DNA from: Candidatus Hermodarchaeota archaeon
Lineage (GTDB): Archaea > Asgardarchaeota > Heimdallarchaeia > Hodarchaeales > Hodarchaeaceae
Direction of reading: 5' to 3'
Assembly: GCA_048886185.1 (NCBI GenBank)
Contig: JBHLKY010000016.1
Location: 60,001-92,000 of the forward strand
Length of the DNA: 32,000 nucleotides
The notes beneath the pieces are model-generated. The model searched no databases. It saw only the letters and a list, made by a program, of their open reading frames with translations, and had not been told where the DNA came from. Position numbers and translations under genes: made by a program. Shown piece by piece: positions 1 to 27,911 of this stretch (position 1 is the first letter of the stretch; every line of letters begins with the position of its first letter).

Positions 1-2145
1 TATTGTCTTTCTTTCATCCCCCGATCGCCATAAGTAATATTTCAAAATTCGACTTCTGTTAAATAGTTGGTTTTTATTACGCTCAAGGTAACTCATGATC
101 TTCTTGTTTGTGCTGATTTCATCGTTTCGATAGTTAGGAGCAAAAAGAACCTCTCTTTCCGTTCTCCAAAGTGAGAATTGCGTAATGTCTTTTCCTTTGA
201 TCCAAGGTTTGACATGGGATTTGTTAATCTTTAAGACTCTGGAAAAATAGAATGGGTCTTTCGGTGCAAAAATATGATCACAACCAGTTTCAATTCCCTT
301 GCTAATATTAGCTACGTCTTTAAGTGTCAGATTAGAATTTTCTCTAATTCTATAAAGGATATTAAGCTTAAGCCAATCAAGCAAAATCCATTTTTCTGGC
401 TTTAGATTAAATTGATAGACTCTACAGGGTTTTCTTAAAACTTGAGAGCCATTTTTTTGGTACTTGTTATAGATAAAACTTTGATCAGCGGGAGTATGAG
501 ACTTCTTCAAATGTATAATGATACTCTTAATATTTATATTCTGAAATAGTGTAAAATCTGTCAAGTCATGTATTTCTAGAATGCTTGCTGATTTAGAAAT
601 ACATTTTCTGATTTTCCTTGCATATAGACTGTGTAATATATATTTTGGGAGAATGAAAGATAGAATTCCGTTGTTGGTATTTAAAGCTGACAATGCTCTC
701 GTAATAAAAAAATAAGATAGATCATTATTCCCAGTATATATTTCTGGATATACTTTTTGTAACATTTTTCGTACAATCATCGGCATATCCGTTAATGCTA
801 CAAATGGGGGATTGCCAATGATTAAATCAAACTTCGGGAAGTTAAAATCTGCCCAATGGAATTTTAATATTAAATTCCTTTTGCTTTCTAGATGATAAGC
901 CAATGATTTATCTACAGATAGATCTATTGGGGATGAGAAAACAGCATAGAGTTTAAAATCAGATATTTGAGAACTTGAAATTGAGTATCGGATTTTCTTT
1001 AAAATTTTACTGTCAAGACTTTCCTTTTCACGATTCCAGACTGCCCTATCCCCTTCTAAAATGAAATATTGAAATCCTGGATACTTCAATAAGCTAGCAC
1101 AAGTATTGAAAAGCTGATTAATCTTTTGGTTCGTGGTCGAAGGAATCATGATTTCATATATATTGAATTGTTCGAAAAAATAATGATCATAATAAAGGTC
1201 TAGTAACGTTTTTCTCTTCTTTAACTCCATTTCGACAATTTTATTTTCACTGTATTCTAATGGTAATTTTTGAAAGCCAAAAAGGGCGTCTCCACTGTAA
1301 AGATTACATTTAAAACTGATTGGATCAGTTAAATTGAAACTCTTCTGATTATAAATCCACAACCAAAATTTCATTTGTGAAATTCTGATAGCTATCGGAT
1401 CTATATCTATTCCATAGAGGTTTCTTTTCAATATCAGAGATTTTATTTTCTCTATGGATAGAGTTGGGTTTAGAATCCTTAAAATCCGTATTAACAGATT
1501 TGCAGCTGCAAATAGAAACACACCAGTACCTAATGCAGGGTCACAAATTTTGATCGATTCCACTTTCCCCAGAATAATGTGTTTTGTTTTGAGATCTAAT
1601 TCATCTATCTGGCGTAGATCAGAAAAGGTATTACTAAATTCATGGAAATTGTTTCTTAACCAGTAAATAAAGCTTTCTTCTGCTATATAGGCTGCAAACT
1701 GATAAGGAGTATAAACATTTCCAGCAATTTTTTTTGAAGTGGAAAAATATTTTCTTAATTGAGTTACAAGAGTATCAAAGATTTCTAGGGTAATTAGACT
1801 TTCAGAATTGGTTTTACAATCAGAATAATCTCTAATCCATATAAATTTTTGTGAAAGATTATCAGCAATGGGCCCCCAGTCAATTGAATTTATCTTATTA
1901 TTCTGAAACTTTTTTTTGGCCTTTTTTCTAATAGGAAAAAGGATTTCTAGAGTTACTAAACTTGAAATGTTTTCTATTAAAAGAAATATATCTTTTGGGT
2001 TGCCATGATAGTTATATACTTCTATCCAATTTTTGAAGCGTTTTCCTGAAGACGAGGGAATGTTTTCTGGATTTAAAAAGAGTAGACAAGTGAATTTCAG
2101 CACTATGTTTAAGCTCTCTTCCTCACTTAATTTCAATGAGTTCAA
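1..2145 (-). CDS. Gamma-class N6-adenine DNA methyltransferase with TaqI/Eco57I-type target recognition domain; C-terminus runs off the window, start uncertain
   Basis: Hand translation: the minus frame is open from 2247 to base 1, and is absent from the ORF track because there is no stop in the window. Motif X GNVYTP, motif I ICDPALGTGVF (Asp codon 1542), YGIDID, GDALFG (1290), motif IV DLIIGNPPFV (Asn codon 813), TRD-type KGIETGCD. No in-frame ATG near the 5' end; TTG at 2145/2136 or GTG at 2103 are candidates. Confidence 0.88.
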   Translation of the reverse strand, partial: MNSLKLSEEESLNIVLKFTCLLFLNPENIPSSSGKRFKNWIEVYNYHGNPKDIFLLIENISSLVTLEILFPIRKKAKKKFQNNKINSIDWGPIADNLSQKFIWIRDYSDCKTNSESLITLEIFDTLVTQLRKYFSTSKKIAGNVYTPYQFAAYIAEESFIYWLRNNFHEFSNTFSDLRQIDELDLKTKHIILGKVESIKICDPALGTGVFLFAAANLLIRILRILNPTLSIEKIKSLILKRNLYGIDIDPIAIRISQMKFWLWIYNQKSFNLTDPISFKCNLYSGDALFGFQKLPLEYSENKIVEMELKKRKTLLDLYYDHYFFEQFNIYEIMIPSTTNQKINQLFNTCASLLKYPGFQYFILEGDRAVWNREKESLDSKILKKIRYSISSSQISDFKLYAVFSSPIDLSVDKSLAYHLESKRNLILKFHWADFNFPKFDLIIGNPPFVALTDMPMIVRKMLQKVYPEIYTGNNDLSYFFITRALSALNTNNGILSFILPKYILHSLYARKIRKCISKSASILEIHDLTDFTLFQNINIKSIIIHLKKSHTPADQSFIYNKYQKNGSQVLRKPCRVYQFNLKPEKWILLDWLKLNILYRIRENSNLTLKDVANISKGIETGCDHIFAPKDPFYFSRVLKINKSHVKPWIKGKDITQFSLWRTEREVLFAPNYRNDEISTNKKIMSYLERNKNQLFNRSRILKYYLWRSGDERKTI

Positions 2146-5993: not shown

Positions 5994-8900
5994 ATGTCGA
6001 AACAAGGTCAAATGAAGTCCTTTAATCCTGGTTATCGGTCATGGTTTACACCCTTTCGGTACAATCAGAGGGGACAAATTCCTATTTTCATATTAGACTA
6101 TGAAACTCATAGTGAATGGGAGGATACATATGAAGAATACCCTCAATACGAAAATAGGGAATATGGAAAATCAACATTAATAAATGGAATCCAGATTTAT
6201 TTTTTAGATGAAGAGTATCAGAAACATAAGGCATTTTTAAGACATGCGCCTTATTACTATTTATTACTTGAGAAAAATTTGCCACTACAAGAGATAAACA
6301 GAATAATAAACCAAATTAGGGAAGTTGGAGAGAAACAGGTAGTTAAAGTGGAGAAAGGAGAGTATTTTGACGCAGCTGATCTTACTTTTTTGGTAAAGCA
6401 ATCATTTCTAAAAGTAACAGCTGATCGTCCAGGATCAGTGCCAAATTTAAGGGCAAAGACCGAAGAAATATCTGGTGTGGAGGAATGGCGAGAAGCCGAT
6501 GTGCTGTTTCACCATCGTTGTGCAATAGATCATAATGTTCGTGTTGGAACATGGTACTTAGCTGAAATTAACCAAGGGGAAATTAGAAGTCTTTCTCCAA
6601 TTCCTGATAAAACACCACCCCACTTACGTCTCTTAGCTTTTGATATAGAGACAGATTTTGAGCGTACACGTGATCCCAATCCCAATAAAGACGAAATATC
6701 GATGATTTCAATCTTTACTGGTAGTGAAAACAGATTAATCATTAATTCAAAAGTCGTTAATACAAAAGACATTAAGAGTTTCGATATACTCCTGCGTCAA
6801 ATGGATGATGATCATCCGAAACCATGGGTCGATTGGGAATACTCTGAAACACCAAAGGTTAGTTCAGATGTCATCGAGAGATACTCTATACAAGTAATTA
6901 TCGTAAAATCAGAAAAAGAGTTAATTCAATTATTCTATCAATACGTGGATGAATATCGGCCTGATGTGATTACAGATTTCTTTGGAGGGCGATTTGATAT
7001 TCCCTTTCTTGCTATTCGTTCAGAAAAGCACAATATTTCATTTGAAAGGGAGACTGGTTTTGAGATCAAATTTAAAATCCAAAGAAGAAATCTAAGTAGA
7101 AAAGACCTCAATAAATATTATTCTTCAGCCCACATTGATCACGTGGCAGGTGCGGGAATCATCCACCTAGACGCATATCTGTTTAATGAAAAGTACAGTT
7201 ACCTTCCTAAAAAAGATCTGGGACTCAAACCAAGTGTTAAAAAGAAACTGAAAATTATTCCAATTGGGAGAGAAGCGCTATTTAACATCAAAAATGATCC
7301 TGTCTCAGCAGCTGCGTATGCTGGTTGTGATGGCTACATCACCTGGAAATATGTACGGGAACTTGTGCTAGATTTTTTCATTTCAATGGGTCAAATATTT
7401 CCAGTACCAGCTTCAGAATTGCTTACAAGGCGCGCAGGATCATTGGATGACCTCTTAATTGATGCGGAAGATTACCAACATCAAATAATTGGAAAAAGAC
7501 GTATTGGAAAAACTGATTTTCATTCTTTCTCCCCAAACATTATAATCGAGTCTTTGGCTTATACAGGAGGATTGGTTGAGGCTAAAAGACCAGGAATATG
7601 GCGAAGTGATCTTTATTATGATTACTCAGTTAATAAAGAAGCATTACTAGAGCTTAAAGAAATCATTCAAAATATAATTGTAAAAGAAAGCAATTTATTG
7701 GCTAAGAAAGTAATTAAAGAAGAATTTGAACAACAACTACTAGCAAAACTTGGGGAAGTGAAAGTAGAGTACATTGAAGATCCAATACAATACTTGAAAC
7801 AAATAGAGACTGTACTCTTAAAAAATGGTATTCCACCTCAAGAGCGCTCAAAAAAACTTAATTCAATCAGAAACGTTTTAGAAAAGATATCTACTCTTCA
7901 ACCTGAAAACGTAGAGGAAGTTACAACAAAAGTTTTGACTCAGATTGATGAATTAACTTCTTTAAATGGAAAAACTCAGCTTAGAGGTGTTCATGTTGAT
8001 GTAACTTCTATGTATCCTTCCCAAATCCGTCAATATAAACTTCAACCTTCAAGTATCGTTTCACTAACTAGATGTCAAGTATGTCAACTATATGAAAAAG
8101 ATAATAGTTGTTTCTTTGAAGGCGATTGGGTAATTAAGTTTACTGCAAATCGTCCTTGCAGGTTTAAAGATACAGGGCCTTCTAAATGTTCCTCTACAGT
8201 TTGTTCAGCTAAAAATGAAGCCCAATGTAAGAGATATGACCCTACTCAAAATGGTATCACTCGTTCGCAAGAAATTTTTGCTTTCGATGGAAAAAAGACA
8301 GAGGCATTTATTCTTAAAAATGGATTAGGGATTGAAAAAGTTCCTGTAAATCAAACATATCTAGGCTCAAGTTTATCTGGAAAGGATCCCTTTGTTGCAC
8401 TTCAACAGTGGCTTCGTAACTCAATTGAAGCAACCCAGCTTACAACACGCCTAGGTGAGAACCACTTCGATATTTTTGAGGATACACCAGAAGTAAATCT
8501 CCCACGTAATTCCTTTCTTAGTTTGGATGTTAGAACAAAGAAAATGACCATTTTGTTGTCAGTTAATTCACGAGTCTGTCAAAAAGCCTATAATTTTGTA
8601 GCTCGGATAATGGATGATTTTTTTGCAACGAGAGTTCGTCATAAAATAGAAGCTAAGCGGTTATCACAGATAATTTCTCAAAGGAGAATTCAGAAAAAAG
8701 AGATTCCTGCTAAGTTACAACGCCAACAAAAATTCCACGACAGTACACAGATTGGGATGAAGGTTCCACTAAACAGTATTTATGGTTTACTTGGGATGAA
8801 AGGTGGTGTTAGAAATGCTAGTATGCCTTGTGCTGGAATCACTACAAAATTATCTGCTGATTTGATATTTTGGGCTGCAAACCAGCTGGAGCAAATAGGT

Positions 8901-10355
8901 TTAGTAGTAGAGTTAGATACTGACGGTATATGGCTTTGGGTTCCTAAATCATTTCCCTTGGACTTTTCTGTTACACTTAATAGTCCCTATAAAGAATCCA
9001 AAACATATAAAGTGAGTCTTATAGATAAGGTTCTTAATGAGAAAGTTGCTTCTTTTTCAAGGAACGACAACTATTGGATAAATGATGGAGAAAGAATTAG
9101 ACATACAAGTAAGAATCTTATTCAATTCGAACAAGATGGACCATACGACTTCCAGTTTGTAATGGGTAAAAAGAAATATATTGTATATAATTTTAATCAT
9201 AAAACCCAGACATGGATAGAGAAAGAATTAACAGGATTAGAATCTAAGCGCGCTGACTTCTCTAAACTACAAAAATATTTCCAAGAAAGGATTATCAATG
9301 CTTATTTAGCCCAATATAATCCTGATAATCCTATTACGCTTTCCCAGATTTACGAAAACGCAAAAAAAGAAGCTAATCAGATTCGTTCCGAACTAGTAGA
9401 CAGGAAAATGGATCCAAGCTATTTTGTAAAACCAAAAGCGATCAACAAGCCATTACGGGCATATAAATCCAATCTTCCACAAGTATCGGCCGCTTACATC
9501 TTAAAAGATCTCGGTTATTCTGTAGATCCAGGTACACGGATACAGATGTTAAATATAAAGGGAAATCATGTCATCCCTAAACAAGTTTTTGATTTTGATT
9601 TTAACACAATAAAAAAGGTTTTGATAAAACACGCGATCGCTACTCTTAGCTTTATGCTAGGGGAGCTCAGTACAAAAGAAGATTTACAAAAATTGATTGA
9701 TGTTAATCAATATATTGAAGATGTGTTTGGTCCTGGACGAATTTACGAACGGATGGTTGAGTTTCCCATGGAAGCTCAACAATTACCTAGTCAAGTACAA
9801 AGAGAGCTGGATCTAATCGATATTCCAACTTCTCAAGTAGAGGAAACACCTATCCATGACCAAAAACCTAGGTTAAAGAAAGAAAAGGTAAAGAAATCTG
9901 TGGCGAAGACAAAAAAACCAATTAAGGTTAAGAAATCTCCAAAAATAAAGAAGAGAAAACCAAAAGGTTTAACCAGTCTATTTCAACAAGAGACATCCAC
10001 AGATGCATTAGTATCATCAAAATCGTTGAATGAATACAAGGAAGTAAGAGAAAAGGAGATATCAAAATCTATAAGTGAGCTAATTGCTGAACCCACACCT
10101 AGTTCCTTAATGACAGGGATAGTCTCCAAACCTGAAGAATTAAGTGAAGAACATCCTCTTGTTTCATCAGAAGAGATCGAGGAATTAGAAACAAATGGAA
10201 TTTTCGTGCATGGGGAAGAAAGTAATGACCAATATGAATTAGATATACCAAACGAAGAACAAATGGTCTGTTCTGAATGTGGGGCATTAATAAATTCTCT
10301 AGAAATTATGAATGAGGGATGTACATTCTGTGGAAGTGGGCGACCCCTTAGATAA
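5994..10355 (+). CDS. polB: Family B DNA polymerase, DNA polymerase epsilon catalytic-subunit-like
   Basis: Exo I FDIET (D217/E219), Exo II GRFDIPFL, Exo III YAGCD, Pol A HVDVTSMYPS (D669), Pol B KVPLNSIYG, Pol C ELDTDGIW (D975/D977). Pol epsilon-specific segments: EADVLFHHRCAIDHNVRVGTWY, GGLVEAKRPGIWRSD, CysX, FEQDGPY, ELTGLESKR. C-terminal C4 zinc finger. Confidence 0.93.
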   Translation: MSKQGQMKSFNPGYRSWFTPFRYNQRGQIPIFILDYETHSEWEDTYEEYPQYENREYGKSTLINGIQIYFLDEEYQKHKAFLRHAPYYYLLLEKNLPLQEINRIINQIREVGEKQVVKVEKGEYFDAADLTFLVKQSFLKVTADRPGSVPNLRAKTEEISGVEEWREADVLFHHRCAIDHNVRVGTWYLAEINQGEIRSLSPIPDKTPPHLRLLAFDIETDFERTRDPNPNKDEISMISIFTGSENRLIINSKVVNTKDIKSFDILLRQMDDDHPKPWVDWEYSETPKVSSDVIERYSIQVIIVKSEKELIQLFYQYVDEYRPDVITDFFGGRFDIPFLAIRSEKHNISFERETGFEIKFKIQRRNLSRKDLNKYYSSAHIDHVAGAGIIHLDAYLFNEKYSYLPKKDLGLKPSVKKKLKIIPIGREALFNIKNDPVSAAAYAGCDGYITWKYVRELVLDFFISMGQIFPVPASELLTRRAGSLDDLLIDAEDYQHQIIGKRRIGKTDFHSFSPNIIIESLAYTGGLVEAKRPGIWRSDLYYDYSVNKEALLELKEIIQNIIVKESNLLAKKVIKEEFEQQLLAKLGEVKVEYIEDPIQYLKQIETVLLKNGIPPQERSKKLNSIRNVLEKISTLQPENVEEVTTKVLTQIDELTSLNGKTQLRGVHVDVTSMYPSQIRQYKLQPSSIVSLTRCQVCQLYEKDNSCFFEGDWVIKFTANRPCRFKDTGPSKCSSTVCSAKNEAQCKRYDPTQNGITRSQEIFAFDGKKTEAFILKNGLGIEKVPVNQTYLGSSLSGKDPFVALQQWLRNSIEATQLTTRLGENHFDIFEDTPEVNLPRNSFLSLDVRTKKMTILLSVNSRVCQKAYNFVARIMDDFFATRVRHKIEAKRLSQIISQRRIQKKEIPAKLQRQQKFHDSTQIGMKVPLNSIYGLLGMKGGVRNASMPCAGITTKLSADLIFWAANQLEQIGLVVELDTDGIWLWVPKSFPLDFSVTLNSPYKESKTYKVSLIDKVLNEKVASFSRNDNYWINDGERIRHTSKNLIQFEQDGPYDFQFVMGKKKYIVYNFNHKTQTWIEKELTGLESKRADFSKLQKYFQERIINAYLAQYNPDNPITLSQIYENAKKEANQIRSELVDRKMDPSYFVKPKAINKPLRAYKSNLPQVSAAYILKDLGYSVDPGTRIQMLNIKGNHVIPKQVFDFDFNTIKKVLIKHAIATLSFMLGELSTKEDLQKLIDVNQYIEDVFGPGRIYERMVEFPMEAQQLPSQVQRELDLIDIPTSQVEETPIHDQKPRLKKEKVKKSVAKTKKPIKVKKSPKIKKRKPKGLTSLFQQETSTDALVSSKSLNEYKEVREKEISKSISELIAEPTPSSLMTGIVSKPEELSEEHPLVSSEEIEELETNGIFVHGEESNDQYELDIPNEEQMVCSECGALINSLEIMNEGCTFCGSGRPLR

Positions 10356-25947: not shown

Positions 25948-26049
25948 GCGGAGGTACCAAAGTGGCTATAATATCGGGATTAATAGCCCTATTGGCTAAG
26001 GAGCAGCCTGCAAAGCTGTATTACGCGTGTTCAAATCACGCCCTCCGCT
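25948..26049 (+). tRNA. trnC: tRNA-Cys(GCA) with a 30-nt non-canonical intron in the D-arm; CCA not encoded
   Basis: Acceptor GCGGAGG/CCTCCGC with U73 discriminator; anticodon arm GCAGC-CTGCAAA-GCTGT (GCA at 26010-26012); T-arm GCGTG-TTCAAAT-CACGC. Removing 25970-25999 gives a 72-nt tRNA with D-stem CCA/TGG. Confidence 0.9.
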
Positions 26050-26105: not shown

Positions 26106-27911
26106 ATGGCTACTACTCTTTTTGATGTTGTTGTACTTGATACTAATTTCTTCATTTCCTTACTGAATGCTGGTGTATCAGATATATTATTACCCAATTT
26201 ACAACATATTGCTACTTCCGTTGGTATGGATGTAATGGTTCCCGAGGAACTTCCAAAATCAGATATCCCAAACCGATTTCGAGAATTAAGAAGCCTAATT
26301 CCAAAACATGTTCGGATGGAGCGAGTTAATCGTGGATCTAATCTTTGGAATCAAACAGCTAGATATGCGGTACAAGAACGAATGGTTAGGGTAAATGATG
26401 ATCCTACTGATATAGATGTTATAATCCTAGCAAAAAAATTTTCGCTTAAGGATAACAATAAGGTTGCTTTAGTATCTGATGATGAGGGAGTTGCTCGAAT
26501 TGTTAAAGAAAACCAAAAATTCAAGGGGATTGATCATCTTTCCTGTGGTTCATTTGTTTCTATTCTTGCTGCAGCAGTATCAGATCCAAAAATGCGAGAT
26601 ATTTTAGACAAGACTGTTGAACGTGTATTTCGTGCTTCTTGGAGTTACAAGAAGAAAACACGACGATATATCGATGTTGCCATGTTGATCAGTGATTTAA
26701 CTGATACAGCTCGATTTGTACGGACTGCAGCTCAGGTTGGTGTTGAACCTTCAATCGAGGAGATCAAGGAAGATAGCGTTGAGCCTATTCCTACGAAAGA
26801 GCCTGAGGTCATGAGACCTGAAGATGCTTTAATTATTGCTCAACAATTAGTGATTAAAGCAAGAGAGACACGTGAGAGCTTTAATGTGCTGGAGGCAGAA
26901 CGAGTTCTTATTGAAATCCTAACGAAAAGTTCTGAACTGATCTATACAATTGATAATCTTGAACAGCGGGTGATTGTTGAACGTTTGCTTCGTTCAGAGC
27001 TGTTTGAACATCATAGCTGGCTCCTAGATTATAAATTAACACGAAATCAAATTGTAGAGGCTTTTGTCCACGCGGAAGCATGCCGTGTTTTCATGAATTT
27101 TATATCGGTTGGAAGAGAGGCCATTGAAAATCTTATTTCTCTTCAAGGTTTATTATATTTATTGTTAGGTCAATATACTCAAGCTCTTCACTTATTTGAA
27201 TCAATTCCTGTAATTGAGACTGAAATGCCTCCAACTCAGCTCCTTGGGCTTACTGTTTCGTTAATAGCGACTAACCAGTTAAATGATGCATTCTTACAAT
27301 TGAAACGTTTTCCAGCTCTTCTTGACGGTATGATATCATCGATGCATACTTATGCAAATGATCTTTATACTCATGATCAGCGTGAATTAGCTATAGAAAT
27401 CCTTAAATTTATAGTTAAGAATTTTGGCGACCGTAAAGAGACTTTCCCTTCAATTAAGCGACTTTTTATTCTCACTAGGATTCGACCAGACCTTGTGGAA
27501 ATTGATTTAAAAGTTCAAAAATTTTTTAAAGAAAAATTAAAAGAGGAGGGAAAAGATCTTACATCACGGGGTATCCCTTCTTCTTGGCGGAAGATGCTTC
27601 CCATTGAAATTCCTGCTGCTGAAACTAAGGAACTAATTGAGCAGTTTAAGGGCTTTTATCATATACTAGATTTAGTTGTAGATCATGAACGTAATGAATT
27701 GAACGTTATTGCCTGGAATGAGAGTAATAATTCAACATGGAAGCTTGTTTTTGATGAAGCATATAAACCTGCATTAGAGGAGAGTGTAAAAATCAAAATA
27801 ACTTCTGGAAGTATTATAAAAATCCATCAATCTGAAAAAAGGGAGAATTATCGTGGCAAAATAATATTTGAAGATCCTGCGATTCAACCTGTTCTTGTTA
27901 AACCTTGGTAG
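26106..27911 (+). CDS. PIN-domain protein with C-terminal helical (TPR-like) region and terminal beta domain
   Basis: VVVLDTNFFI (D12), DPTDIDVIILA (D102/D104) and ALVSDDEGV (D125/D126) give the PIN acidic cluster; aa 240-470 show helical-repeat patterning. Confidence 0.78.
   Translation: MATTLFDVVVLDTNFFISLLNAGVSDILLPNLQHIATSVGMDVMVPEELPKSDIPNRFRELRSLIPKHVRMERVNRGSNLWNQTARYAVQERMVRVNDDPTDIDVIILAKKFSLKDNNKVALVSDDEGVARIVKENQKFKGIDHLSCGSFVSILAAAVSDPKMRDILDKTVERVFRASWSYKKKTRRYIDVAMLISDLTDTARFVRTAAQVGVEPSIEEIKEDSVEPIPTKEPEVMRPEDALIIAQQLVIKARETRESFNVLEAERVLIEILTKSSELIYTIDNLEQRVIVERLLRSELFEHHSWLLDYKLTRNQIVEAFVHAEACRVFMNFISVGREAIENLISLQGLLYLLLGQYTQALHLFESIPVIETEMPPTQLLGLTVSLIATNQLNDAFLQLKRFPALLDGMISSMHTYANDLYTHDQRELAIEILKFIVKNFGDRKETFPSIKRLFILTRIRPDLVEIDLKVQKFFKEKLKEEGKDLTSRGIPSSWRKMLPIEIPAAETKELIEQFKGFYHILDLVVDHERNELNVIAWNESNNSTWKLVFDEAYKPALEESVKIKITSGSIIKIHQSEKRENYRGKIIFEDPAIQPVLVKPW

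Follow-up and report, generated by a model that had tools for sequence, protein, structure and literature searches.

A tRNA-Cys gene of a Hodarchaeales archaeon with a putative 30-nt intron at a non-canonical D-arm site

Non-canonical tRNA introns are found in the Thermoproteales and other Crenarchaeota, as Marck and Grosjean in 2003 and Sugahara in 2008 are said to have described. The target of the splicing endonuclease EndA, the bulge-helix-bulge (BHB) motif, consists of a helix of 4 bp in which each strand is followed on its 3' side by a bulge of 3 nt; cleavage takes place after the second base of each bulge. The Hodarchaeales are the Asgard group usually placed nearest the eukaryotes. Between 92 and 95% of Asgard tRNA genes are interrupted, often non-canonically (Valentin-Alvarado et al. 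2024, PMC11291895), and D-arm inserts, which were gained repeatedly, are systematically missed by tRNAscan-SE (Goswami et al. 2026, preprint 10.64898/2026.10.13.758758). The route by which the introns arrive is an open question in that preprint. Both studies centre on Atabeyarchaeia, Freyarchaeia and Jordiarchaeia, and neither treats Hodarchaeales by name, 'Hodarchae-' being absent from the text of the preprint. Non-canonical intron sites in the D region of crenarchaeotal tRNAs include 20/21, 22/23 and 25/26, and many introns of Thermoproteales are near-copies spread among tRNA genes by transposition (PMC4090602). The cleavage of D-loop and relaxed introns was shown to be conferred by the L1 loop of the endonuclease and its residue K44 (Hirata et al. 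2011, PMC3241643), and Asgard EndA has already been classed as (alpha-beta)2 with L1 (Kaneta et al., PMC5829648).

The window analysed here, a stretch of 32,000 nt, comes from an Asgard archaeon of the Hodarchaeales whose genome has 4.84 Mb and 35% G+C; a HMG-CoA reductase encoded near the tRNA gene described below has its best matches in Candidatus Hodarchaeota MAGs, at 82-85% identity. A reading of the window made from the letters alone had pointed to a tRNA-Cys gene with an intron of the non-canonical type best known from Thermoproteales; the class holds, but the host belongs to the Hodarchaeales and not to the Thermoproteales. Like the thermoproteal and other crenarchaeotal introns, this one would be of the EndA-spliced class with relaxed motifs. 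Unlike them it resides in an Asgard lineage and has no genomic copy, as a search for copies of the intron elsewhere in the genome, performed as a test for Thermoproteales-like transposition, found none. It resembles the published Asgard D-arm introns (PMC11291895; 10.64898/2026.10.13.758758) in being a short insert with a BHB-capable boundary that is overlooked by annotators, and in its presence/absence polymorphism among close relatives, which points to repeated gains. In contrast, the tRNA-Cys of Atabeyarchaeia-1 has a single intron near the anticodon loop (Supplementary Data 4) instead of one in the D-arm, and here, unlike in the published Asgard cases, one orthologous locus shows four states in a single genus (no intron, or an intron at 15/16, 23/24 or 37/38). 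The pre-tRNA-Thr2(UGU) of Aeropyrum pernix (PMC3241643) likewise has a D-region intron and the same enzyme type, the catalytic subunit of the Hodarchaeales enzyme having a Lys at the K44 position. However, A. pernix is a crenarchaeon, its D-loop intron is described as a BHB and cleavage was shown biochemically, whereas the motif described here is of the relaxed HBh' type, contains two wobble pairs and an imperfect 5' bulge, and is predicted to be spliced. As D-arm introns of Asgard archaea have already been published, the tRNA-Cys case is a further example and leaves knowledge of the mechanism unchanged; it supports the published claim that many such introns are hidden in Asgard genomes and extends that claim to the Hodarchaeales.

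The tRNA-Cys(GCA) gene, with a U73 discriminator, occupies positions 25948-26049 (+) of the window and contains a 30-nt insert at 25970-25999. Its parts are the following:

25948..25969, + strand, exon 1 (gene nt 1-22): acceptor 5' strand, U8 A9, D-stem 5' strand CCA, A13, D-loop AGUGGCU, A22, U23
25970..25999, + strand, predicted intron of 30 nt at Sprinzl 23/24 (gene nt 22/23), missing from the syntenic orthologs L014-L018
26000..26049, + strand, exon 2: D-stem 3' strand GG, A26, anticodon arm, variable loop, T-arm, acceptor 3' strand, U73

The acceptor stem GCGGAGG/CCTCCGC (25948-54 paired with 26042-48) is followed, after its 5' strand, by TA and the D-arm part of exon 1, CCAAAGTGGCTAT. 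Next come the insert, AATATCGGGATTAATAGCCCTATTGGCTAA, then GGA and the anticodon arm GCAGC-CTGCAAA-GCTGT, with the anticodon GCA at 26010-26012 in the loop CTGCAAA. The variable loop ATTAC precedes the T-arm GCGTG-TTCAAAT-CACGC, and the discriminator T is at 26049 (U73). A GCA anticodon and a U discriminator are as expected of tRNA-Cys. The acceptor stem and the anticodon stem are separated by 48 nt, instead of the ~18 expected. A CCA 3' end is absent from the gene and would thus be added post-transcriptionally. Because G18 G19 are gene nt 17-18, position 17 is empty and the insert follows gene nt 22, the intron is placed at Sprinzl 23/24, in the 3' strand of the D-stem, whose pairs are C10-G25, C11-G24, A12-U23 and A13.A22. 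The minimum-energy fold of the 72-nt RNA from which 25970-25999 have been removed is a cloverleaf (-27.1 kcal/mol), and the locus scores 82.1 bits with a Cys covariance model over the full model length. These data confirm that the locus is a tRNA-Cys(GCA) gene with a 30-nt insert at a non-canonical D-arm site.

Orthologs for comparison were obtained by searching 60 related genomes at the DNA level and extracting the loci; they belong to the same genus, sampled by about 20 genomes. All loci have in common two flanking genes, for 280-aa and 601-aa ORFs (45-85% identity), and a HMG-CoA reductase gene close by, and they are therefore taken as orthologs and not paralogs. At this syntenic locus, five genomes (L014, L015, L016, L017 and L018) are insert-free, with the junction …GTGGCTAT↓GG… (here and below, arrows mark junctions or predicted cuts). 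In L014, L015 and L018 the sequence across the junction, GCGGAGGTACCAAAGTGGCTAT↓GGA, is precisely the product of excising 25970-25999, and the window is matched exactly over the first 25 nt, which comprise exon 1 and the initial 3 nt of exon 2. L016 and L017 show 2 differences from the window in these 25 nt, around the junction (TGGTTAT…GGG), one of them being the T that replaces C at gene nt 19 of exon 1. Exon 1 is otherwise free of differences, both in the nine orthologs with the 23/24 intron and in three of the five intron-less ones. Further 3', the five intron-less sequences have few differences from the window, all at stem or variable-loop positions. ARAGORN calls all five of them tRNA-Cys(gca), but it overlooks all forms with a D-arm intron. 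The sequence-only reading had identified the tRNA, counted 30 extra nt in its D-arm and placed the junction at 23/24 after excision of 25970-25999; the cloverleaf, the covariance score and the ARAGORN calls bear out the identity, and all five intron-less orthologs, which fix the predicted junction at 23/24, have that same junction. A mature read over the spliced junction is predicted to be …AAAGUGGCUAU↓GGAGCAGCC….

We then compared the evolution of exons and insert in an alignment (A2) of the nine orthologs with a 30-nt insert at 23/24. Only 6 of the 72 exon columns are variable (8%), and four of these six belong to compensatory changes in which both sides of a stem pair are replaced, an A-U to G-C replacement in the anticodon stem of 4 sequences and a C-G to U-A replacement in the T-stem of 1. 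In contrast, 24 of the 30 intron columns vary (80%); the six invariant ones include G48, C49, U50 and A51, which form the splice helix and the first bulge base. Judging from these substitutions, the insert behaves as an intron and not as a part of the tRNA. A group I or group II self-splicing intron, or a mobile intron or insertion element, was rejected, as the insert has 30 nt, matches no Rfam family and is present as a single copy in the genome.

The prediction that standard scans may miss the gene proved correct for both programs used. ARAGORN reports no tRNA in the window and, in whole-genome intron mode, none at this locus, and Rfam gives no match to the locus at gathering thresholds. At relaxed thresholds, the Rfam tRNA model matches only 25986-26041, with 27.4 bits (below the cut-off of 29). 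This partial match, whose D-arm is taken from the 3' end of the intron (CCCU…AAGG), was discarded, as it has an acceptor strand without partner and a C.A mismatch. In the whole genome ARAGORN finds only 32 tRNAs, 21 of them with introns, and several of the anticodon-loop introns have 30-31 nt, as do the three intron types at the tRNA-Cys locus. Its intron mode also lists three 'tRNA-Pyl (cta)' genes with introns (C3:182110-182310, C11:98585-98688 and C14:26674-26782), which may be mis-spliced calls.

No second tRNA-Cys was detected in the assembly by BLAST with the whole gene and with the exons singly, by a scan for GCA anticodon-arm/T-arm stem-loops or with a covariance model (R1) built from six intron-less orthologs, so that the intron-less functional copy which had been named as a possible refutation is not found in this assembly. 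The three stronger of the next-best matches of the covariance model (48 and 33.5 bits) correspond to Gly and Leu tRNAs called by ARAGORN, and the rest have at most 21 bits. In the related genomes, wherever our searches found a Cys-type gene it was at this syntenic locus alone. The gene is thus apparently functional and apparently the only tRNA-Cys(GCA) gene of the genome, although a second one is conceivable on missing sequence, as the assembly is a draft of 75 contigs (96% complete, contamination 5%). Without this gene the genome would seem devoid of a cysteine tRNA, a concrete annotation failure. The draft state of the assembly, together with the difficulty of detecting tRNA genes in this genome, is also what could favour a decaying pseudogene disabled by the insertion, with cysteine decoded via a gene missing from the assembly. 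We consider this highly improbable, given the strong purifying selection on the exons, the compensatory stem changes and the presence of the same intron in 9 genomes, in addition to the position of the relatives' genes and the lack of another Cys-like locus in the covariance-model search.

We next looked at the RNA structures that the precursor might form. With the BHB geometry that follows from the canonical 37/38 case, the candidate splice motif comprises the following elements:

25964..25967, + strand, central splice helix, 5' strand GGCU, in the exon and including G18 G19; partner 25994-25997
25968..25970, + strand, 5' bulge AU↓A, predicted cut after 25969, from sequence and energy evaluation
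25970..25993, + strand, inner (h') hairpin, with AAUA/UAUU at 25970-73/25990-93 and GGG/CCC at 25976-78/25987-89
25994..25997, + strand, central splice helix, 3' strand GGCU, in the intron; partner 25964-25967
25998..26000, + strand, 3' bulge AA↓G, predicted cut after 25999; clean, with the junction fixed by the intron-less orthologs

Two G-C and two G.U pairs make up the central helix GGCU/GGCU, whose pairing holds in 36 of 36 cells over the nine orthologs; both junctions are two bases 3' of its strands. The sole change in the helix is a G to A replacement at column 47 in L002 and L007, whose 3' strand is AGCU, turning a U.G into a U-A pair; because the 5' strand is invariant exon sequence, covariation of this helix can be one-sided only. 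The 5' bulge has 2 or 3 nt, since A25970 can pair with T25993 (U25993 in the RNA), leaving 2 nt, and it is a strict 3-nt bulge in L009, L005 and L003. In the inner hairpin, the pairing of GGG/CCC is kept in 85% of cells and one change is two-sided. Beside the 3' bulge the exons form no outer helix of 2 bp or more, as U16.G54 is the sole pair available and G.A comes next; the motif is accordingly classified as relaxed HBh' and not as hBHBh'. In the ortholog L009 the motif is clean: GGCU/GGCU is accompanied by AU↓U and AU↓G as bulges, and the inner helix is perfect over 7 bp. All the elements of the relaxed BHB drawn beforehand, namely the GGCT/GGCT helix, the 3' bulge AAG, the intron hairpin and the imperfect 5' bulge, are thus present.

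Other motifs were considered and rejected. A mirror-image BHB, with bulges 5' of the helix strands, is not superimposable on the EndA motif and has no pairing (AUAU vs GAGC). An alternative BHB, GGCU/AGCC (25964-67 with 25985-88), would be spliced after gene nt 22 and 43 and so retain 9 surplus nt in the D-loop; all four of its pairs are Watson-Crick in L001 and L002, the only two of the 9 orthologs listed by a strict scan. Splicing via CCAA/UUGG (25957-60 with 25992-95) would remove the entire D-loop. The latter helix, which is present in this precursor (25957-25960 with 25992-25995) and drives a competing minimum-energy hairpin, is the central splice helix of the 15/16 introns of sister species; here it might be a relic or a coincidence.

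The minimum-energy fold of the precursor is an extended D hairpin (CCAAAG-GGCUAU with AUAGCC-CU-UUGG; -37.7 kcal/mol, z = -3.1), and the BHB conformers lie above it, at -31.5 to -33.4 kcal/mol. The 30 nt might accordingly be retained, giving a mature tRNA-Cys with an extended D-arm hairpin, all the more so as this hairpin is the fold of the 102-nt RNA that is 4-6 kcal/mol below the BHB conformers. Yet across the orthologs no more than 81.5% of the hairpin's cells are paired, with six broken pairs and zero compensatory changes, which is why we read it as a competing fold of the precursor and not as the mature structure. Furthermore, the G to A replacement at column 47 disrupts the long hairpin while leaving the splice helix paired, the insert evolves about 10 times faster than the exons, and close relatives work without the insert or with an insert at another site. 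G18 G19 are required for the contact between D-loop and T-loop, and the hairpin would bury them. Retention of the insert thus appears very unlikely. The splice helix, for its part, is found within the minimum-energy fold in five of the nine orthologs.

Near the boundaries of the predicted intron lies a short direct repeat, which had been noticed in the window from the start and is confirmed:

25963..25968, + strand, direct repeat copy 1, TGGCTA
25993..25998, + strand, direct repeat copy 2, TGGCTA, 30 nt downstream of copy 1

The repeat had been thought to allow alternative junctions, from 15/16 to 21/22. Excision of 30 nt from any start in 25963-25969 indeed yields one identical product, …GUGGCUA↓AGGAGC…, which has an A at Sprinzl 23 and differs from that of the 23/24 junction. 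This A would create an A12.A23 mismatch, and the minimum-energy fold of the product loses the normal D-stem. All intron-less orthologs have U at Sprinzl 23 and none has A, and in the geometry of the GGCU/GGCU BHB each cut falls two bases beyond the 3' end of a helix strand, at 23/24. Splicing at a junction inside the repeat is hence extremely improbable, and this part of the earlier interpretation does not stand.

The repeat is largely explained by the splice helix, as four of its six bases are the helix strands and GGCU pairs with itself through G.U pairs; the direct repeat is one of eight sequences able to pair with GGCU. In addition, both bulges start with A in all 14 introns examined at the tRNA-Cys locus. 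It had been suggested that the repeat hints at an origin by duplication, i.e. that the intron was born by a local tandem duplication of 30 nt, or by insertion of a (hairpin) sequence with a 6-nt target duplication, TGGCTA being its eroded trace. In favour of such an event, the spacing of the repeat equals the length of the intron, in L009 GGCTAT stands on either side of a 24-nt hairpin, and all three intron types at the locus have 30-31 nt. However, outside the hexamer the intron shares 7 of 24 positions with the 30 nt before it and 3 of 21 with the exon that follows, which by these manual counts is what chance would give for this composition. The splice helix dictates four of the six bases of the repeat, and each of the 14 introns has A as the first base of the bulge; the AGCU of L002 and L007 improves the pairing and breaks the repeat, and introns of the 15/16 type lack a repeat at their boundaries. 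Neither are boundary direct repeats a general rule, since the 21 other introns of the genome, whose boundaries were set approximately with ARAGORN and our own BHB scorer, show 0-2 matches out of 6. We therefore regard a duplication origin as unlikely; it is neither needed nor shown. If it were true, such an event at the wobble-self-complementary GGCU would have created a spliceable BHB at once, and it would provide a concrete route for repeated gains of ~30 nt at this locus (15/16, 23/24 and 37/38).

An intron of this kind had been said to require a splicing endonuclease of broad specificity, and the genes expected of one are present in the genome, in which the EndA architecture could be determined. 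Two EndA genes were identified, both on contig C8, at 46687-47307 and 79557-80195. The alpha protein has the catalytic Tyr/His/Lys context, and its closest solved relative is the catalytic subunit of Aeropyrum pernix (3p1z_B, 2.9e-41), with which it aligns without gaps through the Crenarchaea-specific (L1) loop, Lys63 and Lys65 being at the positions of K44 and R46. The best matches of the beta protein are the three-unit EndA of ARMAN-2 (4fz2) and the EndA-like unit of Methanopyrus EndA (5x89), and it has a weaker match to the structural subunit NEQ261 of Nanoarchaeum (3iey_B). In beta, the 9-residue specificity loop is absent, and the catalytic His also appears to be missing. The endonuclease thus has the (alpha-beta)2 architecture with the L1 specificity loop and is predicted to be able to cut relaxed and non-canonical motifs. 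A gene for the ligase RtcB was found as well (PF01139, 533.6 bits, G000:C9:134509-135786). The genome also has two full-length matches to class-I CysRS (C33:324-1250 and C10:78147-79070, with 367 and 364 bits) for one detectable tRNA-Cys gene; as the contamination is 5%, one of the two could be foreign.

With these components, the locus would be transcribed into a 102-nt precursor with a 30-nt protein-spliced intron at Sprinzl 23/24. The D-loop GGCU with its G18 G19 would pair with the GGCU near the 3' end of the intron into a 4-bp central helix, the intron hairpin would serve as the inner helix with essentially no outer helix, and the result would be a relaxed BHB of the HBh' type. The (alpha-beta)2 EndA, by means of its L1-loop catalytic subunit, would cut after 25969 and 25999, the second base of each bulge; RtcB would join the exons and CCA would be added after ligation. 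We infer cleavage and ligation at these exact bonds from the genomic sequences, and the matches in the one metagenome scanned are genomic forms only. It is very probable that this is a functional and apparently sole tRNA-Cys(GCA) with an EndA-spliced intron at 23/24 and ligation by RtcB, and the earlier interpretation is supported overall.

Finally, we examined the distribution of intron states within the genus. Five genomes have no intron, nine have the 23/24 intron, and the 15/16 intron (30-31 nt, helix CCAA/UUGG, bulges AG↓A and AN↓U) is found in L010-L013 and in L148. The latter, from a metagenome, is the one extra ortholog found by a 15-mer scan that otherwise yielded mostly chance matches. 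L022 has a 30-nt intron at the canonical site 37/38. In this gene (1421-1522 (-) of L022, genome G006), the central splice helix (CUGC with CUAG) contains a C.C mismatch, the inner helix has 8 bp and the anticodon stem serves as outer helix. Motifs are thus relaxed in this genus even at the canonical site.

In a tree of the two flanking proteins with a midpoint root, the 15/16 forms make up one clade (SH-aLRT 99), as do seven of the nine 23/24 forms (SH-aLRT 80), without a resolved position for L005 and L009. Two intron-less genomes are at the midpoint root, and 4 state changes are required, the minimum being 3. This distribution fits separate gains from an intron-less ancestor, with losses also possible on a two-gene, midpoint-rooted tree. 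The four states of one syntenic tRNA locus in one genus form a compact natural series from which intron gains could be dated, and the same series could be used for probing the tolerance of the (alpha-beta)2 endonuclease.

The surroundings of the gene yielded some additional observations. No conserved TATA box was established upstream in the genus, whose leaders are AT-rich and not alignable, and a T-rich tract follows the 3' end of the gene in most orthologs. The 601-aa ORF (26106-27911 (+)), which starts 56 nt past the tRNA and adjoins tRNA-Cys genus-wide at 68-85% identity, has no Pfam match at E <= 0.001. Elsewhere in the window, an ORF of 1453 aa (5994-10355 (+)) codes for a family-B DNA polymerase, with an exonuclease match at residues 166-409 and a polymerase match at 1040-1189; the gap of ~630 residues between these matches points to one or several inteins or to a large insert of another kind.
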